From contig OZ249436.1 of the NCBI GenBank assembly GCA_965235115.1, positions 30,630,001-30,694,000 of the forward strand: 64,000 nucleotides of DNA. Reading direction: 5' to 3'. Made by a program: the position numbers and the translations under genes. Each line of letters begins with the position of its first letter. Position 1 is the stretch's first letter. The notes beneath the pieces were generated by a model that made no database searches, was not told the DNA's origin, and was given only the letters and a program-made list of their open reading frames with translations. Below are positions 487-27,878 of this stretch, one piece after another. The stretch is from Laetmonice hystrix (taxonomy: Eukaryota).

Positions 487-544
487 ATGTTCCGGGTGAT
501 CGTTCTTACTTTGATCCTCTACAGGTCTACATGGGCGGTTTCAG
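487..544 (+). CDS. GPCR exon 1, signal peptide [19 protein letters not shown]
   Basis: ATG at 487, basic residue then hydrophobic core and AxS end; CAG|GTGGGT phase-1 donor matches the phase-1 acceptor at 8469. Confidence 0.65.
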
Positions 545-3500
545 GTGGGTATAGTATAGATCATTCTTGTTACTAGCTACTGGTACCAGCGCTGCAGGTC
601 ATTGGGCCACTCATCTGGTGTGATGATAAAATGTATTTCCGGCTGAAGACGAGGATGATGGAGAGAAAATAGAAAACAGAGGACACAAAACTAGGTGATG
701 TATAAGATTCCGCAATATATAATGATGTTATCTTTGTCTTTAAACACCATTTTGCAACAGAAGGAAAGATATCAAACGAAAACTCCCGAAAACAAAATAA
801 AGTTATTTCGCTGCGCTATAGATAGGCATGTCTGCCTAAAGTAAAGCGGTGTTCTTCTGACTTTGACGTCATTGTTTTATTTCATTGCTGTTTTGACTAT
901 TAAGGATGAACCCCAGTTCCAGAATCAGAGATTCACAGACCGCAACAACATATTACAGATTGAATTTCCACCTTTAAATTAAAACGGACGCCTTAAGGCC
1001 TGTACCCACTAGCGCGTTTTACCGCTGCGGTCCACGCTGAGCGACAAAACGCGCTAGTGGGTTCAGGCCTTACGGCAAGCACCACCGCCTTCAGGAGATA
1101 TGTGGACATTTCCGAATTACGTGGGATTCCGAATTTTATCACGATGAATACAACAATAACAGCTAAAGGCCTGAACCCACTAGCGCGTTTTGTCGCTCAG
1201 CGTGGACCGCAGCGGTAAAACGCGCTAGTGGGTACAGGCCTTTAAGGAGAATCGCTTCAATTGGTCTGGGCCTGACCTTGTTTGTAGTCGCTATAGGAAT
1301 ATTACTATATAGGCCCTCTTATTGCATAACAAAAAGGTATTTAATTGATGCCTAATGCGCATGTAGAAATTACAAATTTTCACTAAAAGCATTTTATAGT
1401 CAATATCAATACCATAACGCGGAGTATGTTTATACATACGTGAAGAAATTAAAAGTAAATTTAAAATGGAAGTCACCTTTATAAAATAAGTGAATTCTAT
1501 CCTTATCAGACAAATGATCAAAGGAAAGCATAGCCCCAGGACGATAAGTCTATGGCGCTAATATACCCATGCCATTAACTTATTACCTTCCTACGGTTTA
1601 GATCTTGCAGTACAGAAAGAGTAAGACGCTTTTACATTCATTTTCTGTTCCTGGGGAACATGCAATGACGAAGGTGATCATAGACAGGTCATTGGGTTGA
1701 CAGTGCGTGTTTACCGTAATTGAAATATTTGATTCCGAGTTCAGGTCAAGTTCCATATGGCATGGGCAGTGGCGACTGTGCTTCTATAGTTTTAATATTT
1801 TATATTTAACAAAAGATACTTGCCGATATCGACGCGGTAAGCGGTGCCCAAGTGATAGAAAAACATTCACGGCATCGTTTCAATTCTATATACATGTATT
1901 TGTAAATTGACTCCATAAACCTGAACTCCTACGTCAAATTGCATTTACGTCCACTCATCCGATGAAGGTGTATACAACTGCTAAGCCTCGTGGTATCCGG
2001 CGAGTGGCCATCGCACAAGATATGGCTGAGGGATAAACTTTAGGGTCGATTTTCTCAGTTTCACAGTTTTGCAGATACTGCAGTCTCTCTTGGGAGGGCA
2101 GAAATAATCTCGAAGAAATTGCATACGGCGTTCAAGAAAATAGAACAAAGAGAACGACAGTGCCATTTGTCATTGATCAAACACGCCCAACCAACCCGCC
2201 GAACATATATTCGATTCAGTCAATATTTACGATCTCGGTGTCATTGCAGTATTTGCGGGATCACTTCGCACATGTTCGCGCAGACCATCAACATATACTA
2301 TGGTGGCCCATAAGTATCATTGCGTGTTAGGGAATAGTTGCGACTTTTCCGCGTGTTAGAAAAATCCGCGTGTTAGAAAAATCCGCGCGATAGAAAAATC
2401 CGCGTGTTAGAAAAATCCGCGTGTTAGAAAAATCCGCGCTATAGAAAAATCCGCGTGTTAGAAAAATCCGCGCGATAGAAAAATCCGCGTGTTAGAGAAA
2501 TCCGCGCATTAGAAAAATCCGCGCGTTAGAAAAATCCGCGTGTTAGAGAAATCCGCGCGTTAGAAAAATCCGCGCGATAGAAATCCAGCCGTAGCTTTGT
2601 GACGTCACCATAGCTATAGCCATTCAGTGACCAGCGTTTGCGCGGGCTTTAAAGCTCGAACTGAAGGCCTCACTGCTCGGTACTTCCAAGAGATTGGGAC
2701 TATAGTGGACGACAGTCTACATAGTCCAGGGGCAAGGCCTATCAGACCCAACTGGGCTAGTCCCCTGACAATTTTATTTGGGGGTCCAAATTAGGCGGTC
2801 CATGTTGGGTGAACCACCTTGTTGGGGATAGGTCTCACTGAAGGTCTCACTGCTCGAGACTTCCAAGAGATTGGGACTAGTGGACGACTGTGACCTACAT
2901 AGTTCAGGGGCAGGGCTACCAGACCCAACTTATAAATTAGGCGGTCCATGTAGGCGTGAGCCACCTTGTCGGGGGGAGAGGTCTCACTGAAGGTCTCACT
3001 GCTCGGGACTTCCAAGAGAATTGGACTATAGTGGACAGCAGGTCCACATAGTCCAGGGGCAGGGCTATCAAACCCAATTTAGCCCAATAAGAACCTTAAC
3101 AACAATAATATAAACATAATATAAAAGAAACTTTATATAGTGAGATAGTCATGAGCCCCGTTTACATTACCAAAAAATAAGGGTGCTCGGTCCGGACCGA
3201 GAACGGTACCCCTAAAAAAGTGGCAATGTAAACCTGTCAGTCCGGACCTAAAGTGGACCGGGCCGAGACCCCCCGAAGGGGGTTCTTCCCCCATGATAAC
3301 TTTCCACGAAATGTTTGGGCAGGGGTTAGGGTTAAGGTCAAGGATAGGGATAGGATAGGGATACGTTTTTGGGAGGTGTAGGGACTGGAGTTAGGGGTTA
3401 GGGGTTAGGGGTTAGGGCCATGGATCTTTACTTTCCACCAAATTTCGTGGGGTTTAAGTTATCATGGGCGATATACCCAGAAGGGTGATCTCGGTGCGGA

Positions 3501-6500
3501 CCGAGGACGGTACCCCGCCCATGTAAGTGGCAGTGTAAACGTGTCACACAGGGTACCGGGCCCAGTCAACTTGTTTGAGACGGTAGGCCTACTGGACATG
3601 CGCGCAATTCGGTCCGGTCCGAGCACGGTCCACCTGAAGTGGACCGTAAAAGTGGAAGCTATTCTCTAACACGCGGATTTTTCTATCGCGCGGATTTTTC
3701 TAACGCGCGGATTTTTCTAACGCGCGGATTTTTCTAACGCGCGGATTTCTCTAACACGCGGATTTTTCTATCGCGCGGATTTTTCTAACGCGCGGATTTC
3801 TCTAACACGCGGATTTTAACACGCGGATTTTTCTATCGCGCGGATTTTTCTAACGCGCGGATTTCTCTAACACGCGGATTTTTCTAACACGCGGAAATGT
3901 CGCGGTTATTCCCTAACACGTAATGATACCTATGGGCCACCATAATATTCAGATATGCAAGCTTACATCCTGGCAGTTCGAAATGCGGTACTGGAGCACG
4001 TTTATACGTTGGTTGACGCCATGTTGCTGCATGCATCTTGGCATCACACAGCAGGTGATGCTGTCTTCGATTTGTATAATAAGGTATTCCCCCAAGGCAG
4101 GTGCCAGGAACTTTCAAATTACTTGTGACATGTGCTGCAACATTATACGGCGGCTATAGACAGATCCCACGATTTCCTCTTTCGTTGTGATATATGAAGA
4201 GTTTTTATAGACATGGACCTGTATCATTGATTCTCATGTTAGTCAAACTGATCTCTGCGATGTTGGGCCACTTCCTATACCACAAAAGGTAAACACAATA
4301 CAACAGAGCAAAGCTCTTTAAAGGGATTCTCACCCGCGAGATGAGTCTTCATATTTATGCTCACCTCCTGACCGCTCACGTAGGCCTAAATATGCCACTG
4401 AATGTTTTTTTTCATATTGGTTCTGTTAACACATTCTATGAGAAGACAGCTGTAAAATTATCCCTGATGGTGGATAGATTACAAAAACTAGCAATCACGA
4501 TGAATTCCGCCGTTTTGGCATGTCGCCAATCGTTTGAACGTTGTGTTGTTGTGGTGTAGAGCACAGAGGTCTTCGGTAACAGTCCCCAACTAATGTAGTT
4601 CCAGAATTCGTCAAAAGAATATCCGTGACTTTACCGAGAATAATGCTGACAATACTCGAAATCTATTTTCGTTAGGACAAATCGAATATCTAAATTGCAA
4701 ATATTGACAGAAGAGCTTCTGCTTTGCACCGACCATAATTTGCATAGCCCTGCGCACAGAAATATCAAAAATAACTTCCGGGGTCTCGAAAGCAAAGTAG
4801 GTCATTTTCAGTGACTGAAATAAGATTTGGCGACTTTTAGAAGTTATTTACATAATATCCGCCAAGCCCACATAGAAAGTTGGGGAGATTTGGATCATAT
4901 CGGAGAACCGCAATGAAAACATATTTTTTTGTACGTACGACTTGAAATTTGTGAGATACTCTCTTTAAGACATGCCTAAAGATTGATCATTTACACATCC
5001 GTCATGTAGCTCAGGTTACGTTTGATATGGTTTCTGGTGTGGGCAGTGTCCACTTTAATATCTACCAAATGATGTGCATGTTCATGGATGTATTTCGGCA
5101 AGTTTTTAATGGGTGTTATACCAACATGAGATGTCCACCAACAAACGTGATCCCTTGTATAGATCGGTGTCCCGCATGCGACCCGAGGCATAGCACCTTG
5201 AATTACCACTTTTTCATCCTATACACATTACTATAGATATAAGTACTGCAACATGGGAAGACTGGAGAGACATCAACGTTCAGTTTGAAATAACATCTTA
5301 ACAATTTCTCGATATCAACATGTAGGCCTACAGTTGGTGAAAAGTTGTTTATATGCAGACAACACCTAAAACAATTGGTCAATCGACTGCACTAAATTTT
5401 CACTCGGCCGGATCAGAGACCACACGGCTCACGTCAGGGAATGGTCGTGCCGTCACGGGTAAGAATAAATATATAGGCTATTATCGCTCGGGTGTGATCA
5501 GGTCCAGTCCATAGCGTTATAGGGAGCGTAAAGTCTCGCGACCGAAAACGAGGTTCGGCCTAACTAGGTCAGACCGCTGGCGACATACAACTTCCGTTAC
5601 GTCACAATTCTCCACTGCTTTAACATAGGGCGAGCGTAGACCTCTCCAAACATCGGCCTTTCTTTTGACAATTAAATATTTCTTAAGTATGAAGTGTATT
5701 TTTTCTAACATAAGAGATGTTGGTTGTGATGTATAGTAAGTTTGATAACAAAGAGAACAGTAATTGTGGAGTTATCAGTTAGAACGTTTTTTCAATGGGC
5801 CTTCCAATGCTAAATGAACGGAACCGGAATTTGGCTGGCGCCAATTTGGGCCTCCAAACCGCATTTCTCGTCGATTCACGCATTGTGACGTGACATATAC
5901 TTACGGTCCCTATAGAAGGGAAGGACCTTATCACCGTTATGATTGTTGGTATTCTAAAACGTTCTTGCGATATTGTACCTGAACCGAAGAAGAATAGTAA
6001 ACCATCGTCAACACAGCAACCAAGTTATCGTTACGAACGTTTTGGAATACCAACAATCATAACGGTGACAACCTACGCCCGGACTATTTGGCCACAGGAT
6101 GACTTGTGCCGACCACACCACCCTTTTATGTCTCTCGAATTTCTACACTTTTACTATCAGAGTCTATTTCTCTAAAGCAAAGTAAACCGGAAATGGCTCT
6201 GTCGTTCAGAGCTGGGGACCAGGCTACCAACTGGGCATTACATCCGAGGTTATTTCCAACCTGACGGAAACACACGGATATGGCCGCGGGTTCCCGAATG
6301 GGGCTGACAGAGACCATGTGACTTTCATGGTGGTCGAGGGGGCGGAGCAAGGCAGAGGTTTAATCTCCCTGGTAAAAGTGCTTGGTTAAGCAGATGAAAG
6401 AAATAAGTTCCTAATGATACGAACCCCTCGGAACAGTCCCCTGACGTTTTTTTGGGCTGCCTGTTGCCCTTCCGTCCTGCTGAACACCCTTATATTGAGG

Positions 6501-9500
6501 GGGCCTCGGGTGGCCGAGTGGTCTAAAGGTGTCGGCTCCATCATGACACCTAGGACCATCGCCTCACACCGCTGCGACCCGGGTTCGATTCCCGGCCTGG
6601 GCTGCATGTGTGAAAGGTTTGTCAGTCAGTTCCTTCCCGAAGGTCGGTGGTTTCCTCCGGGTACTCCGGTTTCCTCCACCAAGAAAAACTGACTTTCATC
6701 TCATCTTCACCGCCGTGATATGACCCTGGCTGTTGCAAGGCGTAAAACCCCAAATACCCACCCACCCTTATATTGATAGTTTGAACTTTTCTATTCCCTT
6801 TAAGTGGCAGGACGTGCTCTCTACGGACGTACGTAATGCCTGACATGTGCTCAAGTGTCTGCGAGGTCCGAGACTGATTAGTCGAAATGAGACAATGTCA
6901 TGTCAAAGTTTTAACGTCTTACGAAATAGAGCATCTCATAGAAGTAGTTCTGATATATTTATGGTGGTTTTGATAAAGACTACCTTCCACAAATATATTA
7001 TTTCTAAAATCTTCGGTAGGCAGTGTGTCCTTCATCAATGCTATGATGTAAAATTATAAATTGGCAGAAATGAGGACCAGAAATACATGATTGGAGTCCG
7101 TGAGATAGGTCTCCGAGACCTTGCATCACTCGCCAAGCCGATCTGATGGCTCAAGTTTAAAGTGATACAAACATCACAACTAACATGAAATTTTGGACCA
7201 GATCCTGATAATACTTATAATTTGTCGTTGTTCTGTAATGGCGTGAACTGTCTGTAATCCGGGATCAAAATGACCGTGCACACGTCACTTCCGGTTTTCG
7301 GTCAAGAGCAGTCGGAAACGAGACTGCGATGTGGCGCGTGATTCAAATTTTCAATATTTTTACAAATGTTACTTTCTGGGAGAAAAACCTATCCCGGACA
7401 CGTCTGCAACTCACAGTGATCTATCTAGATCAGTAAAGGTGCCTATGTGATGTCTGTAGCACTTTAATCCCTGCCACAGGCGGCGCATGCTCTCCGAAGT
7501 CACCGCGATAGGGCCAAACAGGGGTCATTTACTGCATGGATAACGGACAATATACGAACATTTAATATGGGATTGACATACATACGCTGTCTCTATACTC
7601 TTCAGACCATGTTAGTACTTTTTTCTATCCCTTTCTAGGAATCTTTTGGTCAGTAAAGAGTTTTTGTTACTGATCAGACGGTTCATCGCCCGATGAATTT
7701 CACTGGATGTTAAAGTGAATGCCAGGTCCATAACCAGCCATGAAACGTTCGCTTCATGGCGACAGCACTTCTGACATGTAAAAACTCCGTCACCGTTATA
7801 ACTGAACACAAGATAGTTCGCATAAATCCAGGAATTTGTCTCTTGTATCACTAAGTTGTATTAACCTATTTTGTAGTACGATAGATTTCTATTCTTTCAC
7901 AGTACTTGAATGTGGCAAAGACAACCTTCTTGAATCGAGAAGATTTTGGTTCAACACGTAGGGAACAAAATTTGTAAAAAAAAACAAAAAGAAAAGGTAA
8001 TTGTAGTGGAGGCACTGTAGCTGGAAACATGCAGGAAACGAAAGCCTTCTGCCGGGATATATGCCTAGAAGTCAAATGGTAACAGTTGAAGTGGGAAGAA
8101 CTGTGTAAAATTCATTGAGAAGGAAGCCTGACTGTACGTCACTACACGCGAACTAAACTTGATTGTCGCCTTTCAATGCCCCGTATAGGCTCATCTGTTC
8201 GAACAAAGGGCCTGATCTCTCCTCATAACAATACACCACTCTGCTTTGTTTCTGAAACAATCCCCCCTTTAAGAATTATAGCCTTTCATTCGTGTGAGAA
8301 TGAAGATTCGATGGTGCGTGTCTGGTTCTGAACAGTTGCAATAATTACGAAACATGAAACCTCCACAACAAACCCATTCATTGCAACGTTTTAAGTAACA
8401 TGGTGAGCTTCGAAATGGTATCAGGAGTTATCGCCAAACCTGAAAGACTTGCAACTTTTATATTTCAGGGAATGTTACTACTGCCACGCCCTCCACCGTC
8501 CCAGACCTTGATGCGTCGTCATGTCAGGATCGCTGTGTCGAGAAGTACTTCCCGGGAAAGGTGTGCTACTGCAACAGCGCCTGTAATAATTATGAAAACT
8601 GCTGTTATGATTTCTATAGAGAATGCCAACGTAAGTCTTTATTTTGGCCCTTTTTTTGAGAGAGAGAGGGAGATTCTTTTATTTACGAGTGAAAAATGGT
8701 ACAGGTGTTCGTTAGAGATGAAGAAGTTCTTGTAAGAACTTATGTACATCCTGGGTAACATGCACGTTATAACATATAATTTGGCTCCACTAGCCATAAA
8801 CAAAGCAATAATAGATAGATAACTCAATTTAAAGGGTAATGTTCACGTACAGGACCTTACAAACATGATATAGTATTTACTTTTATACATGAACACATAA
8901 TGAGGATGAGGAGAATGAGTGCAAAGTTGTCATAACTATGTGTCAAACTTACATGGGAGTTACATTTGTTTACATGGTTCCAAATAGTGTCAGGGAAGTG
9001 TACATAAAATATATAGGCACAATATAGATACATACAAGTAGTATAAGGATAAGTCGTGCAGATAAGTCTTAGAAGGAGAGGTTTTAGCTACTTGTAAAAT
9101 GCAGGTCCTGTACTTATATGTTTATTAATGTTGGGGTGATATGAGACAATATGGAATAAGAAGGTACATAATCAGTTAATACATTGTAGTTTTAAATTGT
9201 CTATCAGTCCTTTTTTAACATGTTTAAAACTATGTATTGAAGTATTTAATGCAATTTTGCCATCTTTCATGAGTTTGTTGAAAATTGTGGGGCCTTGGGT
9301 AAATATAGATTTTTCCAGTACTTTCCCTCCGATAGCCAGTAGGTTATAGTGCTCTGATTGTCTTCTCATGCAAGAATATTTTTTATACCCTCGATAAAAG
9401 ACGAGGCACCCAATACAGGCAATTTACATCTATGGTTTCTAAAGGATGGCTTGACCCTCAATCGATGAAGGCGAATTTCTTCTTTTTCTTTTTTTACCCA

Positions 9501-12500
9501 ATTTCCCGACCCCCGACCCCCCATTTCTTTCTTTCTTTGCCAACTTATTCCACCCTACCATATAGGCATAGAGCCTAAAACACTTCTGTAAAAAAGAAAT
9601 AAACAATGACCGACTACGGCTTATGCATCCTGACAAAAAGAGTTTTTGAATACTTGGTTTTATAACAGCTGATCGTGTTTGGGGAGACTCGTGGGTAGAC
9701 TACAACGACCATTCCTATCGATATTTTGAGGATAACACGGCTACCTCAGTGATAGCCTCCAAACAATGCTACCAGCAGGGCGGCATGCTGGTCAGCATCA
9801 ATGACCAGGGCGAGCTCGACTTTCTCATCACGGACGTCATCAAAAAACGCACAATGAGCGTCTTTATTGGCGCCAAAAACCAACCTCCTGGTGAGTATAC
9901 AACGGCTGCATTTGAATACACTACAGCTCCTTCAGATGTACAGTGGGTGTGGGCTGACGGAGCCCGTGTGACTTTCAGATGTACAGTGGGTGTGGGCTGA
10001 CGGAGGCTGTGTAACTTTCAGATGTACAATGGGTGTGGGCTGACGGAGCCCGTGTGACTTTCAGATGTACAGTGGGTGTAGACAGACGGAGGCTGTGTAA
10101 CTTTCAGATGTACAGTGGGTGTGGGCTGACGGAGCCCGTGTGACTTTCAGATGTATAGTGGGTGTGGGCTGACGGAGGCTGTGTAACTTTCAGATGTACA
10201 TGGGTGTGGACAGACGGAGGCTGTGTAACTTTCAGATGTACAGTGGGTGTGGGCTGACGGAGCCCGTGTGACTTTCAGATGTACAGTGGGTGTGGGCTGA
10301 CGGAGACCGTGTAACTTTCAGATGTACAGTGGGTGTGGGCTGACGGAGGCTGTGTAATTTTCAGATGTACAGTGGGTGTGGGCTGACGGAGGCTGTGTAA
10401 CTTTCAGATGTACAATGGGTGTGGGCTGACGTAGACCGTGTGACTTTCAGATGTACAATGGGTGTGGGCTGACGGATCCCGTGTGACTTTCAGATGTACA
10501 GTGGGTGTGGGCTGACGGAGGCTGTGTAACTTTCAGATGTACAGTGGGTGTGGGCTGACGGAGGCCGTATGCCGCTACCTTCGTCCTCCGGTTGGCACGT
10601 CTGGTACTCCGGGGAACCAGACAGCAACACGGGTCTCGAGACGTGTGCTCTCCTCACCAACTACAAGTTCTGGGCAGTCCGCAAAGTTTCTTTCGGTTCC
10701 TACTTCTGGGTCGATTTTCGCTGTGATTCTAACGGCAAACAGGTGCAAGGATACATCTGTGAACGTAAGTCAGGATGGATTGTTTTGTAAGCTTTATTAC
10801 AAAAGCTACAATATAATGCAGTTCACAGCAATGCGTCTTGGTGCTACTCTACTATTGTTACGGGTCTGTACGAATTGCTTATCGTACATCTTCACATGAT
10901 TTAATGTACAGTATACTATGAATTGGATTTGCAGGGACACTAGAGTGTGAACCTAACCCCTGCCAGAACAATGGAACGTGCCGATATGTTGGAGGAGAAC
11001 GGGAATATCTTTGTGAATGCCCCCAAGGTTTCGTTGGAACTAACTGCGAAATACAGTGTATGTGTACTTTTGTTTGATGAGACGCCTTGCGTTTGGACAC
11101 TTCATGATTGCCTAATAATACGATTGTGTATGCCGGACTGGTAATACGTCATAATGTCAACACAATATATTGTAATCTGAATCTGCCGAGCGATAAACAT
11201 GCAAACCAATCAAAAAGTCCCTTTTTGGTTCTATTCAATTGTACTTCATACCAACAAAAAGATGGTCTATGTTGCATGGAATTATAAGCGATACAGAGAT
11301 GAACTATAATGCTGTGTTTTGGATGGCCTGTAGTGATTGATGGCGAGCTGTGGACACGGTGCGGGGAGACTAGCCTCTTGGGCCCGCAGGGGCAGCTCAC
11401 CTCCCCGCTCTACCCGGAGTTCTACCCTCCCAACGTCCGCTGTGTGTGGACCGTCACTGTCAGCGACGGGAATACCATCTCACTAAGGTCAGTGGCCGCA
11501 GAGCACTCTGGGGCCCATTTCACTAACGGGGAGTGTCCCTGGGGACATCCTGGCGACATTCCCTTATCACTGTTCCAGTGGAGGAGAGACATTTTAGTGG
11601 AATACTTTGAGTGGGGATGTCCCCAAATCGAGGTGTCGCGGGGATGTCATTGTTAGTGAAATGGGCCCCTGAGTCGGAGGTGGGATGTCATATAAATATG
11701 ACCAGTTACAGTTTTTTATACCCCCATATCTGCCCTATTAATCCTTGTGAGTGTATGGATGTATTATTTTCGAAGGAATTCTTACTACCTCTCAAACGTA
11801 GGCTCATCCGTGTGAAAAGTCTCACGGTCCTCTCTGCCATTTTGTTTTCTAGGTTTCTCGACAAGGAAATAGAGTCTGGGAAGGATTGCGCTTTTGATTC
11901 AATACGGGTGTTTGACGGTCCCGACACCAATGGTTCGCTGCTCTTAGAACCGGTTTGTGGCTCCAATAGCCCCCAGCTCGAGTTAGTACCAATTGTTTAT
12001 ATTGTGCCGACCCTGACTATAAGCTTCGATCGACAGTCTCTGTGATGTACAGTGTCTGGTTGTGTTTTTGCCTTGAATCAGTGTCCTTTCTTAGTCCAGG
12101 ATGTTGCTTATTGCCTTTATCGTGAGACTAAGAGACATTGTGGCTTGCGCCAGGCAAATGGGTTTAAAGCAATCACCGAGTATCTCTCATTTCAATGACT
12201 TCAAAATGCAGACATGGACTGTAAGGTTAGATAAAGCCTTAGACTACCTAAATCAATAAATTTTTACCCAAAACAATGGAGAAATCTAATAAAATTCAAC
12301 ATTCCAGTTGCATATTGTCGCCATGAAGCGAACGTCTCATGGATGGTTGTTGACCTGGCATTGACTTAGACAGCCAATGCAATTCATCGGGCGATGAACC
12401 AACTTCTAATGAGTTTGTTCCATTGATCTATGCTCTGCATCTTATGGGGAGATCTGTAACTCCCGGGGAAAGAGAGCCGAGACCGCAGTGAAGTAGCAAA

Positions 12501-12776
12501 TGTAGGGGGGTCAGCATCAGTTGCCAGTCGAACCCGGAACAGATATGTCGATTTGCTCACCCTGCTGCTAGACCTTGAAGGGCTCCTGTAGACCAGTTGC
12601 GCCTCTTCTCTTGGCAGATCTAGCCTGGAAATTACTTAGACGCTACATTTGTCCAGGCGGGTGTTGGCATCGGGTTACTCTGTCGTCCCATCAGATTTGG
12701 TGAATCTCTCCAGCAGGCTATAGCTAGTTGTCTCATCAGGCTCCATACACTCTGCTTCTCCTTTCTGCTCCTCTAT

Positions 12777-12818
<42 letters not shown>

Positions 12819-18787: not shown

Positions 18788-18851
<64 letters not shown>

Positions 18852-21800
18852 AAAAACATTTTTCGTACGGGCCTATCAATATTGGAGATTTGTACAGTAG
18901 GCTATATGCCTCCATGGTCTCCTTCATTGAGACAACTGTAAAGTACATACAATATTTTACAATTACTTTTACTACACATCACCGTCATGATCAAATCACA
19001 ATATAAATTTACGAATTTCTCCAGACGAACGTGGTCGTTGCGGTGAAGATTACGTCTACTATGGCGGCCACTGCTACCGTTACTTTAGCTGGTACCTTAG
19101 ACAAGTCCAGCCCCGTCAACACAAGTACCTAGAGACCTGGCAAAGTGCACGTGACCAATGTCATGCGCAGAACGCTTCTATGTTGAGCATCATGGATGAA
19201 AAAGAGGCGTATTTTGTCAAGGTTAATATGGCCCTGTTCTAGTTATACCCACGTTGTGTTAAATTATGCCACATTATAACTGTTCACATATTTCATGACA
19301 TAGCATGTGCATTGTCCCTCATGCACGTAAACAGTCAAATCTAGGCCTACTCCTCAATGCGACAAAATGATAACGTTTTTGGTTTTTAGTACGCGCTGAG
19401 CACTCGATGGCTGTGGGACCAAGCGGGGACCTGGCAGACAAACCATCGGTTGATCTACCTCGGCCTGCACAACATTTATGGGCCTTACGTGTGGGACAAC
19501 GGAGCCAACATGGCGTAAGAGAAGATGTCTTCTATCAATATAGCTATATGGGTTGACAACAGTTTAGAACTTTCTTGAAGTGTCCTAAGAACGCAATTGA
19601 ATTGGCGAATACTTAATTGGGTTGCCAAAGATTGTGTCTGAGTTAAGCTATAGTAGGTCTAGAGTCACATTTCAATGGGGATCACGGGTCATAGAATCAC
19701 ATGACCTCAGTCTTGACGTAATGGCTACGTCCACCACGAGGTCGATGACTAGAGGCCTACTCCACGCAAACTAACTTGTCCTCTGTTCTAACCTCAGCTA
19801 CACCGACTGGTACCGACCCATGAAACCATGGCAACAGCCCGTAGTTCACCCGGATACACTTGTGACGCACCTGCTGCACCTGCGCAGTGGTCAGCCGAGT
19901 GCCGACCTGGGCAGTCTATGTGTGGTGATGCTTGCCACGTCTCCACACGGCTCTCTAAACTGGGCCAAGGTACCATGTGATTACCCCCTGCACAGGGCCT
20001 CTCTCATCTGTAAAAAACCAGCGGCTACGTCAGGTAAATGAAAGATTCAATTGGCAGGGGTATTGTACTGATTAGAGGGTTATGATCAACAACTTTTAGG
20101 CTAATTATGCTCGACTCTTGTGGGAATTGCTACTGTTGTATTTGTATCATTGTTTGTTTGTCCTTAAATCCCGGCTACTTCATCAAGATTAGACTTCATA
20201 AAGGACATTATGTAGAGTATGATTGACCCAGTCTGGAATTACTAACCCACTTTTTGTAATCTTGTCCGAATTGCAGCGACAAACATTGCAGTCCAAAACG
20301 TCGAAGACCTATCGAAGCCATATCAAAGTCAGTAAGCCGATGGTGAAAGCTGAGTTTATTTTGGTCGTCATGAACCAAGAATTGCTAGAGCTTCGCTTTT
20401 TAGGAATTCACAGGAATTTTCATTACTGTGTCCAAAAGAGGAGGAGAATAAAAGGACGTTAGATCCCTTTCGAGATAATAAAAGAAATAAACTAAAAGAT
20501 AATTATGCATATAGGTTGCTTAATTGGATTTACATTTTGCAATTTGGTAACGTAAATTTGATAACGGTGAGAAATGAATGACATTGTCCTCCTCCTAGCG
20601 TGCCCCAATGGCTGGATCAAGTACAGTGATCATTGCGTCCAGTTACATACTAATTACAAGCGGGTCATTGCCCGGCATGAGGGTCAGAAGGTCAAGGACA
20701 TCACCCAGGATGAGGCTGAGGGCATCTGTCGACGTCACGGCGGACAGCTCGAGTCGTTACCCCGCCAGGTGCCGCCACTGTTGGTCGATCTCATGTATCT
20801 GTGGCGTAGCGATGAAACGATGGGACACATTAGAATAGCACAGAACGGAACGGTTTGTCGGCTCCTAAAGGTAGGCCTAAATAATAATTTTGCAGTCCGA
20901 TAAAACAGAATAATATGATCCGATATGGGATAATATTATTATAAGATTAATTATAACCATTTTTTGTCTTCAGCAATATACAATAACCAATGTCTGCCAA
21001 CTCCATATCGAGGTTACCAACATTTTACCACGTAGGTCTAGCTTTGCTTATAATGATAAAATCTTTGTGTTTTCAATCTGACCCTTACGATACCCTATGT
21101 GTTACCCTACAGGTATTTCGAGTCGATGATTCAGAGAACACTGCGGCCCACAGAATTGATGATACACCATGTCAGACGACGGATCAGTATGGGATATACA
21201 GTGTTCTGTGTAGAACCCAAACAATAGGTAGGCCTAATTGTGCAGTTTTATTACCTGTGATATAATGTGGATCATAATGTTCCTGTATCCGTATCACATC
21301 CTTTAGTGTAATCCCAATCTACTACGGTAAGATTATTTCCATGCGATTCCATGACCCGTAATAGATCATTAGAAATGTGACTTTTTTCTCTCTTTTTTGC
21401 CAACCTTTACTTATAAACGCGTGGAAGAAAAGACAACTTTTCTACTTTTTTTGCCACTTGATTCCTTCTGTGAATATTAATGAATATTTTACTTTCCCCC
21501 TTTAAAACAAAGTGACAAAACAGTCTTGTGGAGATTCTGAATTCAAGTGTGAGGACAACTCTTGCATTGGGGTGGATTTCGTATGCGATGGTAGGAAGGA
21601 CTGTCCAAACAACACTGATGAACGTAACTGCAGTAAGTATTTAATAATGTAAAAACTGCATGCGTTACTTCAGAAGACAATTAAGAAATATAATAAAACA
21701 TGAGAGGTCGGAGTTGTGTAGTTCTATGGCTGGTACATATTTGATGTTTTAAGGTTGTGGAGATGGCATGTTCCGCTGTTCGACCGGGCGCTGTATATCC

Positions 21801-24800
21801 ATGTCCCTTTACTGTGATTTCACCGACAACTGCGGGGACAACTCGGACGAGCGGGCCTGTGGTACGTTAGCAAGCTTCACCTGTCAGGCAGGCCTAAACT
21901 ATGAGAAAGACATTTTGTATACGAAATGCAGCTGTACAGTGGTGTGGCTGCGCAGACATCTGCCAATATTTACAGTAAACATACTGCGTGAGTCATATCT
22001 TTTATGACAATATGCTTTTCTTCTCATCAATGCCATGCCCCAAAATACAGATTGTTTGGGTAATATTTGAAGGGCGTATCAAATCATCTGTACTGATATT
22101 ATGTATAAATTGCAGTAGATAATTGCGTACAGTTCTGCTTCCCTTTAAATGCTAGTTGCCGAGAAGTGCCGACCAGATGAGTTTCAGTGTGACAGCGGTC
22201 AGTGCATTGAGATCGGAATGGCGTGTGACTTTAGGAAAGACTGCAAAGATGGTTCGGACGAGAATCCAGAAACATGTGGTGATATAGCTTTAGATATATA
22301 ACATAAATAGTATTGGTATAATATTAAGTTGCGTGCGGTTTGACTTTAGTGAACAAACGATTTGTAGTTTTTAGTTGAACCGTTCTCCCACATTTACTGC
22401 GTGACTTGTGCTCGATTTTTGCTCCCTCTTCCAAATGAGATTATAAAGTACAAAACAACAGCTTAACTTAATTCCTAAGCCAAAGTTAGAATGATCTCAG
22501 AACCCCAGAGTTCCCTCACTCTCATGGTTTATCGTTGTCTCTCGCCGACCTCCAGAGGGTCAGTGTAAAGGTTTTCAATGCTACTCGGGGCTGTGTGTCC
22601 GGTCTGACCTGAGGCGGGATATTGTGTCTGACTGCCCGGGGCTAGCGCTTGAGGACGAGGCCGAGGATCGCCAAGGTGAGCATTCACGGTCAGATGGTGG
22701 GTCGTATTGAGCAGTGAGGAGTCATGAGAAGAAAAGAGGACTCCAAAAGATGCCAGGGTGCCATGTAGCTCTGCTTGACGACCGGAGATCTATGGAGAAG
22801 CGACGAGATGTATTTTTCACAACTTTAACACATATTAAATATCAAGCAACCCACCCCTAACAATTCCCTTTATTCTACACCTCTTAAATAAATGTGTTCC
22901 ATCTGGTGTGATGCAGACTTGGAGACGATGCGACCAAACACTGGAGTAGTCGAGGACACAGTAGTTACCAACGACACGGTCTATGTTGGCTGTAGTGAAG
23001 GGTGGGACTTCTCACAGTGCCGACCTAATCACCCGAAGTGCTTCCGGAGATCTCAGACCTGCGTCTTTGACCGAGTTCTGGTTGACGCCGGTAGGGGGAC
23101 TGAGGTCCAGTCGGGATGCCGAGATGGATCACACCTGAGGAATACATGCGGTATATATACCGGTGTCTCCTATAAGTGTTCAAGTGGTTATTATAAAGTG
23201 TTCAAGTGGGTTTATGCCTGAAAGGCATTGACATTATAATGGAGGTATAGGTAATACTGAACGGCAAAAAAGGGGGCCTGAATTTAACATCGAAAGGATT
23301 ACGGTTTGGGGGCCGCCGACTAGTCTCGGTTTCCATATCCTTATAATGTACCCAGAAAAGACAGTTTCAAATCACTGGTTTCAGGATCGTTTGAGTGTCC
23401 CGGCATGTTTCACTGTCCGGGCTCTTACTGTGTACCTTACAACCGTGTGTGTGACGGTGTCAACGACTGTCCGTACGGTCGCGATGAACATGCCGGTTGT
23501 CGCAACAATTTCTGTCCAGGTATTTATGGGTTCATCTTTTGACTCGGTGTGCAAGAGACACAATGAAAGAAAAATGCCAACCTTATCTAACAAAGTTGTA
23601 GATACATTATGTATAGGAGGAGGGCATTTATTGCAGGAATGATGCGCTGTAAAGGTCATCTTCATTGTTTACCGCGGGACAAGGTGTGCGATGGCGAAGT
23701 GCACTGCTCGAACTTTGGGGAGGACGAAAAGTATTGTACGAATCAAGGTATAGAAAAATAGGGAGTAAAATTGGTAATGTTAACACTAATGTAGCATGAA
23801 CTGATAATTTTATCAAATGGAATGATATAGAAACCTTTTATGACCTCTGTCTTTTATATATACATGTACATGTATATCCCAATATGCACAAGAGTTCTCT
23901 TTTCTTATGTATACTAATAACGGAAGCTTTATTTTCATTTCTTTTTCAAAGACATAATATGCGGGACCCAGTGTCCATGCGTTGGTAATGTAGCGACCTG
24001 TAGTAATAGGAATATCACAGCTCTGGCCGGGCCAGATTCAGCAAGGACAAGACAACTGCGTGCCATTCTTCTACCCCACAATAACGTGAACATCCTAAAC
24101 GACACTTTCCAAGGTCTACACTGGCTGGGAATTCTTGATTTGAGTTTCAATTCAATAGAAAGGCTGGAGGCAGACGTGTTTAGTGACCTTCAAAATCTTT
24201 TTGATCTGGACTTGAGTCACAATAAGCTCCTGTACGTTGACTCGCGGGTATTACATGGCCTCGTTTCGTTACGCTGGCTTGACCTAACCCATAACCACCT
24301 CGCCCACGTGGACCGTGATACGTTTTCTCCCCTCTCGTCACTCTTACATCTCGTCCTGAACGAGAACCCACTTGATTACGTCACGCAGGACGCGTTCTCC
24401 AGCTTAAAGTCCCTCAGGGAGTTGAATACGGATGCATTCAAGTTCTGCTGCATCGCCAAACAGGTAGAGGTGTGCACCCCTGACGCCGACGAATTCTCTT
24501 CCTGTGAGGACTTGATGGCCAATTTCCCACTCCAAGTCAGTATTTGGATCCTTGGCATGTGTGCCTTTGTGGGAAACTTGTTCGTTGTCATTTGGAGGAC
24601 TCTATCGGAACGTTCGAAAGTCTCGTCGTTCTTCATAATAAACCTTGGAATGGCCGATTTCCTTATGGGGATCTACTTGCTGATTATAGCGTGTGTGGAC
24701 GTGTATTACAGAGGGGAGTACATCGTTCATTCCGACAGGTGGCGCGCGAGTGGTCTGTGTCAGTTGGGGGGCATTCTGGCCATGCTGTCCAGCGAGGTTT

Positions 24801-27800
24801 CTGTCTTCACTTTGTGCGCCATCACTGGAGATAGGCTTTTCACCATCCTGTTCCCGTTTAAGGCAGGGAGCTTCAGGATCAAACAAGCCCGCATGATGGC
24901 AGTCGGAATATGGCTAACGGGCTTCTTTCTCAGCATCCTTCCCACCATGGACGTGACGTACTTTGGAAATGCCTTCTTTGGACGCACAGGCATGTAAAAC
25001 ATTATCTTAACCAAAATTTATATGTTTTTAGTTCGGATAGTAATAAAGTTCGACATTTTTTGTTTCATTTTTGAAGGTGTGTGCTTACCGTTCCATCTAA
25101 GCAAAGAACGACTCCCTGGCTGGGAATATTCCGTCTTCGTTTTTCTGGTTCTGAATTTTGTGGCCTTTCTCTTTGTATTTGTTGGGTGAGTATCGATCAT
25201 TTCTTTTACGTAAAAAACTTATAAGTATGCAAAATAGCAAATACAATATTGCTGACATTTGCATCATTTATTATTTGATTATTTTTCAAAAGAAGAGCGT
25301 CAGATAAAAAAAGATTTGCGGGTAAATCATTGTCTACATGTGCAGCTCGAGATTGCCCTCGTATTATGTCCCTATATGTAACACAGAAAAAGTATCTTAC
25401 CAACTGTATGCTTTAATTCTATGAAGCGTTTATAGATTACAAAAATTATTGCAGTATATACCAATCAATTTACAGGTATGTGACAATATTCATGTCGGTG
25501 CGATCGTCCATACAAGACATGGCGGCCAAGTCCACTGCCACTATGGACGAGTATGCCCTGGCAAAAAAACTCTCAATTATCGTGGCGACCGACTTCATGT
25601 GCTGGGTAGCTATTCTTCTGTCTTGTATTGTCAAAATCAATGCAAGAAAAGTGCTGGGCCAAATGTCCTTTAATATCGTGTTGGATAAAGTACTGTAAAG
25701 TACTGTAAGCCTAACTTATTGAATACTGATAACAAAACATACACCAGTTTAACAAATAAATCACGTCTGAATTTATTTCGTACAGTATACAGTAATTAAT
25801 GTAGCCAACGTGATATTCACATGATTTTTGCGGATAATAACCCCCCCCCCCCCTGCGTTCTAACGAAACTTGCGTTCCTGTGAATGTATCCCGACAGGTA
25901 CCAATCATCTTGATCGGTTTTGCTGCCCTGGGTGGAGCATCCATCCCGCCACAGATGGCCGCCTGGGTGGCTGTGTTCATCCTCCCACTCAACTCAGCCG
26001 TAAATCCTATACTCTACACCCTGTCAGCAATCAACTGTAATAGGTGACTCAACTTCAATCATACTCAACTGATAATACTGCGTGCAGTCGCATGTAATAG
26101 TAGGTCCATACAGAGAAAGGGGTAATCATGTTTGACCTGTCATAAGGTACATTATATACAAATATTGTATAATAAAGCGGTAAGTACCACTAGTCACAAA
26201 GATTTTATCAGCTACCCCATGTTGGCTGACGTAGTACGAACACCTAGCCTTGGTCAGTCATTCCACATGAGGACGGAGCCCGAATGTGGTATGTCTAACC
26301 AAGGCTAGGTATAAATCCGTACTACGTAGGCCTAAAATCAAACATGGGGCAACGATTTTATCACAGTTCCAGTAGCTGTTGTTAAGAAATAGCTAATGAG
26401 AAATCCGTCCGAGGAGGGACATGAAACCACTAATGATCAAGACATTATACTGACACAAGGCAGGCCTACGACTGGCGCAACATCTCCGTCAGGGGGCGCG
26501 TCAGTCTGAGCTCGTGGTTTCAGTTCGTATTGCGGATGTAATCTCGTGTCACGGGCTACGAATCCATATAGCGGGCTCATGGACCAATCTGTTCAATTTT
26601 TTGGTCAGTTCTTCCTCAACAGAAGCTAAACTACGGGCTTGATCCAGGGTTGAAAGTCCCAGCATGGATATTTCCTGTGTATTACCAATCTCTCCCAGGG
26701 TTCACCGCGTGGTGAACCCTGGGAGAGATTGGTGTATTACATGTCTGACGTCACCAGAAGGGCCTGTATCACTGGACAGCCTCATTTTGAGGGACCAACC
26801 ACTGTGATGGATACAATCAGCGTGCAGAGTTCATGAGATGTAAACAAACATGTAAAACATTTCTGTGTAATTATGGGGTTATCAATTTATCACAGTTCCA
26901 GTAACAATGCCGCTTTCTGATTGGTCCAGGCCCACGCGATATGAAGCCGTACTCGGTGACATCGCACCAAACGGGTAGGATGGGCCATCCTATAGTAGTA
27001 GTCGTCGCGCCATCTGCCGGTCAAACAGGTCATTTTTCTATCCTACCGTTTTGGCTGCAGCGCCGATACTGTGACGTCACACTGTGCCTGTGGCCACAGT
27101 GTGACACCAACACTGCCATGCGATGGCAGCAAATGACTGCAAAACTTCAAAAAGGCGTTTTGCCGAATTTAATGACTACATCTAATCTAATGTGAGGACT
27201 GGAACTGTGATAAAATCGTTGCCCCATGTTTGCTTTTACGAAGTACGGAATATAACCTAGCCTTGGTTGGCCATACCACATTCGGGCTTCGCCCTCATGT
27301 GGTATGGCCAACCAAGGCTAGGTTATATTCCGTACTTCGTAAGCAAAAATGAGGTAACTGTTAATACCTACCTTCTTCAGATCCCTTCGGCTTCATGGGA
27401 TAGGGTAGGCTACCTAAAGGTATCGGTATATTTCCGTATTACGTTCTCAGACATGGGGTCACTAATAGTATTGCTTGGCAATCTCGTATCACGGGGTACG
27501 AGTCCATGTTGTGGGCAGATGGACCAATCAGAAACTAGCAGCTACTGGGACTGTGATAAGATCTCGTACAGGTGGTGAGGCAATACTTTTGTTTAGCTCA
27601 TTCTTTCGTTTTATTGCAAATTAGGACAGCCATTCGCAACATGTTACCTCTATTTGACGGGCAGGCCTACAGGATAACATAAAGCGGCAAAGTAATTAGT
27701 TTATAACATTTTTCGTTGTAGGCGCGGGAGACGAGGTGCAGCTTCTTCGATAGGTATGTCGACAAAGATGAGTGCTGTAAGTACGGTGGCTCGGAGGGAC

Positions 27801-27878
27801 ACTTCGGGTGTACAGGGAACCAACGATTCCTCGACAAATGTCAACCCTGCCGCCGAGGGTAAAACCACGCTGATGTGA
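487..27878 (+). CDS. Giant mosaic GRL101-like / LGR (RXFP-related) class A GPCR, ~2093 aa, 35 exons: SP-SMB-CTLD-EGF-CUBx5-CTLDx2-LDLa x~7-LRR-7TM
   Basis: Phase-consistent exon chain totalling 6282 nt: 487-544, 8469-8630, 9669-9890, 10537-10764, 10935-11057, 11334-11487, 11853-11981, 13226-13323, 13436-13618, 13753-13944, 14493-14686, 14894-15059, 15614-15769, 16113-16271, 17059-17199, 17715-17933, 18153-18256, 18539-18656, 19025-19221, 19390-19514, 19798-20033, 20599-20870, 21113-21227, 21513-21632, 21754-21861, 22156-22278, 22556-22675, 22917-23150, 23385-23519, 23637-23747, 23952-24989, 25077-25185, 25476-25605, 25898-26043, 27722-27878. GRL101/RXFP-type motifs: FKFCC...[10 protein letters not shown] hinge, [68 protein letters not shown]. 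The 7TM/LRR/LDLa part is secure; joining the first exon and all N-terminal exons into one transcript is inferred. Confidence 0.85.
996..1241. mobile_element. Pair of identical 75-bp palindromic mini-MITEs in opposite orientation (996-1070, 1167-1241)
   Basis: Copy 2 is the exact reverse complement of copy 1; each has ~25-bp arms AGGCCTGWACCCACTAGCGCGTTTT; flanks are TA/TAA/TTA. Confidence 0.8.
2299..3944. mobile_element. Foldback-like non-autonomous DNA element with ~290-bp modular inverted arms
   Basis: Termini TATGGTGGCCCATA..TATGGGCCACCATA. Each arm has ~13-14 copies of a 17-bp unit GCGTGTTAGAAAAATCC (2348-2587; inverted 3663-3893). Flanks ATATAC/ATATTC. Confidence 0.85.
4322..4964. mobile_element. 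TTAA-flanked MITE (Kolobok/piggyBac-type target site)
   Basis: TTAA|AGGGATTCTCAC ... GTGAGATACTCTCT|TTAA; a related internal fragment lies at ~50377-50530. Confidence 0.6.
5518..5914. mobile_element. MITE with short TIRs
   Basis: TATAGGGAGCGTAA ... TTACGGTCCCTATA. Confidence 0.55.
6499..6762 (+). mobile_element. tRNA-derived SINE with V-SINE-like central domain
   Basis: A-box TGGCCGAGTGG (6511), B-box GGTTCGATTCCC (6582), central GGTTTCCTCCGGGTACTCCGGTTTCCTCC, CCCA tail; exact 14-bp TSD CACCCTTATATTGA at 6485-6498 and 6763-6776. Confidence 0.9.
7161..7463 (-). mobile_element. TTAA-flanked MITE, copy 1
   Basis: TTAA|AGTGATACAAACATCAC ... GTGATGTCTGTAGCACT|TTAA; reverse-complement homologue of 13971-14302. 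Confidence 0.8.
8469..8630 (+). CDS. GPCR exon encoding a somatomedin-B domain
   Basis: [36 protein letters not shown] fits the 8-Cys SMB pattern; tttcag acceptor, gtaagt donor, phase 1-1. Confidence 0.85.
9172..9369 (-). mobile_element. Possible degenerate 3' remnant of a LINE (CR1/L2-like) ORF2
   Basis: [14 protein letters not shown]...SIHSFK..KK.L resembles the S(F)..(G)P..(W)N.L...S...FK C-terminal motif of these elements; short and divergent. Confidence 0.4.
9669..11057 (+). CDS. GPCR exons encoding C-type lectin domain 1 (9669-9890, 10537-10764) and an EGF domain (10935-11057)
   Basis: [12 protein letters not shown]....VFIGA..WVWADG..W.SGEPD...ETC...WVDFRC....[16 protein letters not shown]...[15 protein letters not shown]. 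Confidence 0.85.
9931..10563 (+). repeat. 43-bp minisatellite made of splice acceptor plus exon start (14 full units and a final functional copy)
   Basis: Unit ATGTACAGTGGGTGTGGGCTGACGGAG(G/C)C(T/C)GTGT(A/G)ACTTTCAG. First unit starts at 9936, last at 10537 (601 nt = 14x43-1). Confidence 0.95.
11334..18656 (+). CDS. GPCR exons encoding about five CUB / CUB-like domains
   Basis: CUB1 is canonical ([22 protein letters not shown]...[11 protein letters not shown]...VCG...[23 protein letters not shown]). Later repeats are more divergent (CYWEIV..IVNLTF, RYCG, YCKWTM, GPFCGS, VLSPGLP). The repeat count is approximate. Confidence 0.75.
11511..11668. mobile_element. PIF/Harbinger-like MITE
   Basis: TIR GGGCCCATTTCACTAAC / GTTAGTGAAATGGGCCC with a 3-bp TSD CTG. 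Confidence 0.75.
12164..12403 (+). repeat. Dispersed repeat family (TTAA-ended); other copies at ~7680-7770 and ~61270-61555 (reverse)
   Basis: Shared CAAAATGCAGACATGG..CCTTAGACTAC..GAAATCTAAT..ATGAAGCGA.CGTCTCATG..TTGACCTGGCAT..CAGCCAATG.AATTCATC segments. Confidence 0.7.
13971..14302 (+). mobile_element. TTAA-flanked MITE, copy 2
   Basis: TTAA|AGTGCTACAGACATCAC ... TGATGTCTGTACCACT|TTAA; shares internal GATCTAGATAGATCACTGTGAGTTG with copy 1. Confidence 0.8.
16388..16562. mobile_element. Near-perfect palindromic GGGCCC-type MITE
   Basis: ~77-bp arms CTGGGCCCGGTTTCAGAAAGGTTAGCATGATCTTAACT...; a related element lies at ~52208-52381. Confidence 0.8.
16586..16862. repeat. AT-rich ~21-bp minisatellite
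   Basis: About 12 copies of TTTTTGTTACATTATTATATA variants. Confidence 0.9.
19025..21227 (+). CDS. GPCR exons encoding C-type lectin-like domains 2 and 3
   Basis: [58 protein letters not shown]....[32 protein letters not shown]. Confidence 0.8.
21513..23747 (+). CDS. GPCR exons encoding LDL-receptor class A repeats (~7, some degenerate)
   Basis: [14 protein letters not shown]...[88 protein letters not shown]; all are phase 1-1 exons. Confidence 0.9.
23952..24989 (+). CDS. GPCR large exon: LRR-NT, LRRs, hinge and TM1-TM4
   Basis: Contains the 303-aa ORF 24086-24997: LxxLDLSxNxL repeats followed by the hinge and hydrophobic helices. Confidence 0.95.
26230..27345. mobile_element. Two related long hairpins in inverted orientation (26230-26375 and 27195-27345), Crypton-like palindromic non-autonomous repeat
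   Basis: 27236-27342 has ~45-bp perfect arms around TTCGGGCTTCGCCCTCA; a diverged reverse copy lies at 26230-26375. The superfamily call is inference from the GCGAAGC-type loop. Confidence 0.6.

Follow-up and report, generated by a model that had tools for sequence, protein, structure and literature searches.

A predicted GRL101-like receptor gene with a somatomedin B, lectin and CUB head in the annelid Laetmonice hystrix

What kind of receptor is encoded where somatomedin B (SMB), C-type lectin-like (CTLD), CUB and LDLa modules precede leucine-rich repeats (LRRs) and a class A seven-transmembrane (7TM) domain, and what might it sense? The question is raised by a window of 64,000 nucleotides of the Laetmonice hystrix genome (assembly GCA_965235115.1, contig OZ249436.1, positions 30,630,001 to 30,694,000, forward strand; unprefixed coordinates are those of the window), in which an initial annotation had joined 35 exons in one continuous frame. 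Rebuilt from the sequence, the gene runs on the + strand from the ATG at 487 to the TGA at 27878, and its 35 exons give a coding sequence of 6,282 nt (2,093 amino acids plus stop) with no internal stop and with the architecture originally described. Comparison with its relatives identifies it as a predicted single, intact gene of an annelid that encodes an orphan G-protein-coupled receptor with leucine-rich repeats (LGR), of type C2 (GRL101-like). It is an annelid variant, capped by SMB, CTLD and EGF and with an extra CTLD, of a mosaic receptor class, and is already present among predictions from two other annelids, Lamellibrachia (P0002) and Paralvinella (P0003).

The predicted protein reads, in order, signal peptide, SMB, CTLD1, EGF, CUB1-5, CTLD2, CTLD3, seven LDLa-type modules, LRRNT with six LRR-type repeats, hinge, class A 7TM and tail, distributed over the exons as follows (bit scores are from local profiles; paralogs are the three further copies in the genome).

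487-544, + strand: exon 1, signal peptide, amino acids 1-19; the only candidate in 18.5 kb upstream
8469-8630, + strand: exon 2, SMB; Pfam PF01033, 3e-8; 47-54% to the paralogs and P0003
9669-10764, + strand: CTLD1, exons 3 (9669-9890) and 4 (10537-10764); EPD and WVD in exon 4; lengths 222 and 228 nt in all three paralogs
10935-11057, + strand: exon 5, EGF; Pfam PF00008, 8e-10
11334-13323, + strand: CUB1, exons 6 (11334-11487), 7 (11853-11981) and 8 (13226-13323); 83 bits
13436-13944, + strand: CUB2, exons 9 (13436-13618) and 10 (13753-13944); 43 bits
14493-15059, + strand: CUB3, degenerate, exons 11 (14493-14686) and 12 (14894-15059); 9 bits, homology, Atlas lead
15614-17199, + strand: CUB4, exons 13 (15614-15769), 14 (16113-16271) and 15 (17059-17199); 31 bits
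17715-18656, + strand: CUB5, degenerate, exons 16 (17715-17933), 17 (18153-18256) and 18 (18539-18656); 5 bits over half a domain, homology
19025-20033, + strand: CTLD2, the core CTLD of the class, exons 19 (19025-19221), 20 (19390-19514) and 21 (19798-20033); 95 bits; QPS/WAK, no sugar site
20599-21227, + strand: CTLD3, short-loop, exons 22 (20599-20870) and 23 (21113-21227); 13 bits, fold of a relative's domain
21513-22278, + strand: LDLa 1-3, exons 24 (21513-21632), 25 (21754-21861) and 26 (22156-22278); Pfam PF00057 above cut-off
22556-23150, + strand: two degenerate LDLa-type modules, exons 27 (22556-22675) and 28 (22917-23150); Pfam, local profile, cysteine count
23385-23747, + strand: LDLa 6-7, exons 29 (23385-23519) and 30 (23637-23747); Pfam above cut-off
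23952-24989, + strand: exon 31, LRRNT, six LRR-type repeats, hinge and TM1-4; GC donor
25077-26043, + strand: exons 32 (25077-25185; extracellular loop 2 (ECL2) with CLPF, TM5), 33 (25476-25605; TM6) and 34 (25898-26043; TM7, NPILY)
27722-27878, + strand: exon 35, Ser/Thr-rich C-terminal tail and stop; weak likeness to the P0002 tail

Domains were called by a Pfam scan, made exon by exon on 34 of the 35 exons (exon 1 being too short), and by local profiles built from fetched relatives, with three close annelid proteins excluded, and run on the spliced protein. The two approaches agree with the domain content first proposed, with CUB3, CUB5 and two of the LDLa-type modules degenerate. Pfam recovered SMB in exon 2 (34 bits, above cut-off), EGF in exon 5, CUB pieces in exons 6-10 and 14, and LRR_8 and 7tm_1 in exon 31; Lectin_C matches in exons 3 and 19 were partial and under cut-off. 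By local-profile score CUB1, CUB2 and CUB4 are clear; the calls of CUB3 and CUB5 are weak, since they draw on low-scoring profiles, on homology and on an Atlas lead (0.92). CTLD1 scores 49 bits. For CTLD3, the predicted structure of the corresponding domain in the Lamellibrachia relative (pLDDT 87) has a CTLD fold, matching LLT1 with Z 12.4 and a root-mean-square deviation (rmsd) of 2.1 over 95 residues. Five LDLa-type modules are good; exon 27, under the Pfam cut-off, has four cysteines, and exon 28 has six cysteines without the acidic motif.

All acceptors are AG, and the donors comprise 33 GT and one GC (intron 31). Twenty-four introns are in phase 1, five in phase 0 and five in phase 2; phase 1 is found at 18 of 18 inter-module introns versus 6 of 16 others (Fisher p 6e-5), which bears out the phase-1 module boundaries noticed earlier. 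Phase 1 is the normal class for such modules, and the pattern therefore does not date their shuffling. A start of exon 13 at 15683 was discarded for 15614 on homology, and intron 3 as coding sequence was ruled out since the paralogs have the same 222 and 228 nt exons. The model is least secure at exons 1 and 35. A similar phase-1 exon of 58-61 nt in two of the three paralogs supports exon 1, and no protein match upstream of exon 2 was found among the fetched proteins. No counterpart of exon 35 was found in the paralog comparison; read-through from exon 34 meets a stop directly after its donor.

With no RNA holder listed, and with three contig runs of one sample that span the window but are uninformative on splicing, the case for one gene is built on comparison. 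In the genome, of 627 Mb in 35 contigs, there are three paralogous loci, 58% identical over exon 31, and a search with exon 21 returned the same four places only. Exons 2-34 lie in order in all three paralogs, and by script clean splice sites in the phases of the window gene were located for all 33 of these exons in two paralogs and for 32 in the third. The two annelid homologues, which are imperfect predictions and not cDNAs, are collinear with the window gene: P0002 from EGF to tail (41% over 1,950 columns) and P0003 from SMB to TM7 (42-43%). These comparisons favour the single gene originally proposed. Every region appears to be under constraint, synonymous divergence (pS) from the paralogs being 0.72-0.91 and non-synonymous divergence (pN) 0.26-0.43, with synonymous sites near saturation and protein identity of 40-61%.

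The position of the gene among GRL101-like receptors was examined with 327 fetched proteins, 238 of which cover the hinge-7TM region; the choice of query and the limits on length bias these samples. Sixty-one carry nine or more LDLa only by local profiles (the canonical GRL101 type) and 54 carry CUB and CTLD together, 52 of them ending in the order CUB-CTLD-LDLa(4-7); by eye, Pfam CUB and Lectin_C occur together in 20 among the 120 rows listed. Named members with CUB and CTLD come from annelids, a brachiopod, a nemertean, a centipede, spiders, a scorpion, mites, hemichordates and echinoderms; none from insects or vertebrates was among the named rows of the sampled relatives, which does not show absence. 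Corals have CUB-LDLa forms. The relatives swap heads on a common core (F5/8, kringle, ApeC, SRCR, MAM), and SMB was found in one of the 238 (Paralvinella P0003) with a profile from five family members; of the modules, the SMB cap alone looks annelid-specific. The window gene follows the mosaic order of CUB, CTLD, four to seven LDLa, LRR and 7TM, plus a short additional CTLD ahead of the LDLa run. The motif C[RK]x..HL of the degenerate LDLa-type modules is found in 65 of 95 mosaic versus 6 of 61 canonical relatives. A homolog search with residues 480-1080 of P0002 was swamped (2 matches among 7,996 scored) and gives no information on range.

A 7TM tree of 80 rows (5 long or unstable ones having been removed from 85) joins the window gene, its paralogs and the annelid proteins with 100/100 support, within a 19-row branch that includes Lingula and Lineus proteins (98/96). 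The type C1 outgroup forms its own branch (100/99), and the window 7TM groups with GRL101-like receptors apart from it, which upholds the kinship first suggested. Twenty-four canonical GRL101 rows form a 100/99 branch that excludes the window gene. The 49 non-canonical bilaterian rows share one branch (86/70, 84% of bootstrap trees, after removal of the 5 rows), giving no more than moderate support to a single origin; the approximately unbiased test does not reject a tree in which the annelid group is sister to canonical GRL101 (p 0.335). Canonical GRL101 carries about 12 LDLa alone, whereas the window gene has seven LDLa-type modules and 1,250 amino acids of other modules; it differs from type C1 (RXFP1/2, LGR3/4) in its several LDLa and in its 7TM, which lies outside that clade.

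A separate LDLa-rich locus at C20:10,900,000-10,930,000 is nearest to canonical GRL101 (60-65% to Owenia P0004). It shows 14 LDLa matches, some partial, and no CUB or CTLD in the 24 kb upstream of its 7TM exons, and is probably the canonical GRL101 of this genome. Because the window gene falls outside the 12-LDLa clade and this other locus lies near it, the window gene is not a GRL101 orthologue. The proposal that new modules had been shuffled onto a GRL101 core was overstated on two counts: the window 7TM lies outside the canonical clade, and the CUB-CTLD-LDLa(4-7)-LRR-7TM core is common to 52 of the 238 relatives in many phyla. Of more use is the separation of canonical GRL101 from a wide mosaic class. 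The label 'GRL101-like' covers two things, a single-copy 12-LDLa receptor and the large mosaic CUB/CTLD class, and it may be the latter that is meant where such genes have been linked to resistance against parasites or to sensory organs; the starfish gene has six LDLa (PMC6267866).

About fourteen more distant loci (C19, C11, C7, C5, C1:39.2-39.4 Mb and C20:2.7 Mb) have large LRR-7TM exons, with a short CUB-CTLD-LDLa order in five of five examined. Some hemichordate and coral GRL101-like models (P0030, P0032, P0042, P0146 and P0202) have a kinase-like match after the 7TM, mostly under the Pfam cut-off and above it in P0032 and P0202.

Published accounts contain pieces of this layout. GRL101 is an orphan type C2 LGR (PMC11863921; PMC4079206), and IGF has been put forward as its ligand (PMC8286064). 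Lymnaea GRL101 and other type C2 LGRs (arthropod LGR5) share with the window gene multiple LDLa, a short LRR array, a hinge, a class A 7TM and orphan status (PMC8286064, PMC11863921); the Lymnaea type differs in having about 12 LDLa, no other module and its own clade (100/99). Biomphalaria has 12 CTL-LDL-LRR-7TM GRL101-like genes in a schistosome-resistance region (SudRes2), termed unique there, for which a recognition role was proposed and RNA aligned to 11 of 12 models; compared by description, they carry one CTL, lie in a 12-gene cluster, and have no CUB, SMB or EGF reported in the accessible text (PMC12297450). Type C LGRs with LDL and extra CUB domains are drawn for Nematostella and Trichoplax, combined with fibronectin type II and with no CTLD or SMB named in that part of the source (PMC9545775). 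In Ciona there are LDLa-7TM receptors without LRR (PMC2396169), and the sensory organs of starfish and apple snail show enrichment of GRL101-like genes (PMC6267866, PMC6573481). Versions with CTL (snail) or with CUB (sea anemone, placozoan) have thus been published already, none deorphanised in the surveyed literature. In the literature search, with most subscription journals and supplements outside its coverage, no publication was found that treats the SMB-capped form or the CUB and CTLD class as such, and no characterised receptor with the full layout came up. Within that coverage the earlier remark on the want of a characterised counterpart is borne out; lectin or CUB heads on type C LGRs as such are not new.

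Closer counterparts exist among uncharacterised predictions of 1,500-2,900 amino acids that share the CUB-CTLD-LDLa(4-7)-LRR-7TM core, for example S. purpuratus LOC762725, Lingula LOC106174476, Strigamia T1J3N1, Argiope GRL101-like, Paralvinella KAK2157989.1 and Lamellibrachia KAI0232930.1. The last two are collinear, orthologue-level relatives; the others differ by their heads (F5/8, kringle, ApeC, SRCR), and SMB is found, among the 238, in Paralvinella alone.

The head has candidate ligand sites in CTLD1 and CUB1. CTLD1 has the variant motifs EPD, E and WVD in place of EPN/QPD and WND; across five sequences [EQ]PD is kept in 5/5 and WxD in 4/5, and this distal domain is the only CTLD keeping a plausible sugar site (EPD/WVD). 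The acidic E/D/D set of CUB1, presumably a Ca2+-type site motif, is kept in all four copies in the genome. Bivalve lectins of EPD and WVD type have been tabulated as Ca2+-dependent (PMC12842671).

The membrane end has the features of an LGR: LRR_8 and 7tm_1 by Pfam, seven hydrophobic helices, the motifs DRL, CWVP and NPILY, and matches in the PDB. The hinge segment, with FSSCEDLM at 1749, aligns with that of TSHR, and ECL2 contains CLPF at 1916, kept in all four genome copies. Whole-model fold searches, which covered the LRR-7TM part only, gave RXFP1 (PDB 7TMW) as the best match (Z 24.3, rmsd 2.1 over 228), and the ECL2 motif and hinge position are also alike; RXFP1 differs in its single LDLa, longer LRR array, relaxin ligand and type C1 clade. 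In RXFP1 the C-Phi-P-Phi motif of ECL2 and the hinge form a built-in agonist restrained by the LRRs (bioRxiv 10.1101/2022.01.22.477343), and by analogy the window receptor may contain a similar switch. C-Phi-P-Phi is said to be common to all LGRs, yet it was found in 1 of 61 canonical GRL101 rows; the window gene has CLPF and the genome's probable canonical copy has CLAL.

We tentatively favour, at slightly under an even chance, a receptor that senses a large extracellular glycoprotein or a surface through its head and thereby triggers the LGR hinge/ECL2 switch. In a cell that presumably expresses it, a large ligand outside the cell, be it a glycoprotein, matrix, mucus or the surface of a cell, the animal's own or foreign, would be bound by the distal modules. 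CTLD1 would contribute a putative sugar site of Ca2+ type, and CUB1 and the LDLa array would contribute protein sites that depend on Ca2+. Binding would shift the short LRR/hinge unit, and the shift would free the built-in agonist, formed by the hinge decapeptide and the ECL2 C-Phi-P-Phi, to activate a G protein. If true, this would add a new route to surface sensing, by a rhodopsin-class receptor that a lectin or CUB head switches.

Two of the paralogs, an inverted pair, fit specificity residing in the head. Their identity reaches 98% over LRR-7TM and 95% over LDLa, with old differences (pS > 0.3) in 10 of 22 N-terminal exons, including those holding the CTLD1 and CUB1 sites, and in 0 of 11 LDLa-7TM exons. 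The pair lies tail to tail at C1:1,071,000-1,136,000 and shows patchwork gene conversion, with near-identical tracts over exons 13-16, 22, 24-27 and 29-32 and single exons 3, 6, 9, 11, 12, 21 and 34; the matching intron flank is 30 nt or less, and adjoining exons have pS of 0.3-0.8.

Several observations weigh against sensing through the head. The inverted-pair contrast is weak, since exons cannot be treated as independent (nominal p 0.013); the near-identical 3' ends lie nearest the inversion centre, where position may contribute, and CTLD2 goes the opposite way, its diverged half being the N-terminal one. CTLD1 is without the N of WND, and P0003 without the D. CTLD2 (QP[STVK]/W[AT]K in the family) and CTLD3 are without Ca2+/sugar motifs and are more likely protein-binding or structural; glycan sensing as first suggested was thus overstated, retaining the variant motifs of CTLD1 and losing the other two lectin domains. 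A domain 1,500 residues away would have to move the hinge, and the deorphanised LGRs in the surveyed literature all bind through their LRRs. Only four copies exist, strongly conserved across annelids, unlike fast-evolving immune families, and no exon has a clear excess of pN over pS (exon 21, 0.071 vs 0.058). Finally, 14 decoy acceptors stand before exon 4, and each yields an early stop if used.

A peptide-hormone receptor is possible, though we think it unlikely: an insulin/IGF-like or cystine-knot ligand would act on the LRRs and LDLa, in the manner of RXFP1 and of the proposal made for GRL101 (PMC8286064), while the head only localised the receptor or concentrated the ligand. The closest solved relatives of the window gene, RXFP1 and the glycoprotein-hormone receptors, speak for this, as do LRR inner faces fairly conserved in 7/7 family members; but the array has only six LRR-type repeats and five intact LDLa, two paralogs with near-identical LRR-7TM and different heads would be redundant, and, as a separate locus is nearest canonical GRL101, the IGF proposal concerns another gene. 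A more improbable and narrower form of head-based sensing is innate-immune recognition of microbes, symbionts or parasites with direct G-protein signalling. It is encouraged by the Biomphalaria cluster in the schistosome-resistance region and by bivalve EPD/WxD lectins that bind microbes (PMC12842671), yet the snail study's validated variants sit in a neighbouring Zn-RING-IAP gene (PMC12297450), the window family has low copy number and purifying selection, and the sensory-organ enrichment in apple snail and starfish fits chemosensing equally (PMC6573481, PMC6267866).

Adhesion or mechanosensing, in which the head is anchored to matrix or a neighbouring cell and tension frees a tethered agonist as in adhesion GPCRs, seems quite improbable. 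A 1,750-residue arm would suit an anchor, LGRs have an internal agonist (bioRxiv 10.1101/2022.01.22.477343), and amphioxus adhesion GPCRs carry SMB, CUB, CTLD, LDLa and kringle modules (PMC2246102); the 7TM, however, is class A (7tm_1) and not of the adhesion type, the per-exon Pfam scan gave no GPS/GAIN match, and no cleavage site was identified. Least probable is that the locus holds a decayed copy, or a pair of adjacent genes of which one encodes a secreted SMB/CTLD/CUB protein and the other an LDLa-LRR GPCR. Such readings draw on a gene read from DNA without RNA, on homologues that are predictions and incomplete (P0002 without SMB and CTLD1, P0003 without CUB parts, P0001 beginning inside CTLD2) and on the decoy acceptors at exon 4. 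Against them, the whole unit was duplicated three times with introns in phase, introns from exon 2 to 31 are short (117-1,244 nt), no stop interrupts the frame, distant relatives have isoform sets (LOC762725), and P0186 is a 2,734-residue open reading frame on an 8,534-nt contig, an inferred transcript. Two genes were rejected on the collinear paralogs, the in-phase introns and the lack of a second signal-exon candidate between exons 2 and 31.

Beyond sensing through the head in this one receptor, a bolder generalisation appears unlikely: that some class A GPCRs make up an old bilaterian class in which one LGR core is coupled to exchangeable heads (lectin, CUB, F5/8, ApeC, kringle, SMB), turning glycan or surface binding directly into G-protein signalling, and that in this worm conversion keeps the core uniform while ligand-contact exons differ, giving paralogs with distinct specificities. 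Such a class would have gone unnoticed because its members are annotated 'GRL101-like' or 'uncharacterized'.

The decoy acceptors belong to a tandem array.

9931-10568, + strand: 43-bp x 14.9 tandem 'mirage' array copying the exon 4 acceptor

Among its 15 acceptors only the last (10537) is stop-free, and similar arrays cover 4, 5 and 5 splice sites in the three paralogs. Mirages are known from amphioxus, where splicing appears undisturbed (PMC3087553).

Elsewhere in the window, a DUF829 gene, which we take to be TMEM53-like, has a large exon at 49220-50164 (- strand). An OATP/SLCO transporter gene (28453-32837, - strand; Pfam PF03137) lies tail to tail with the receptor gene and bounds it at 28453. 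The interval between exons 1 and 2 holds an element at 2295-3948 with long inverted arms of a 17-bp tandem repeat (2295-2581 / 3665-3948, 91%) and, in its core, four GTTAGGG copies at 3390-3417. Palindromic MITE-like intronic elements occur at 990-1247, 16388-16562 and 27218-27358, and contig depth is very high in several intronic bins (three contig runs, one sample).

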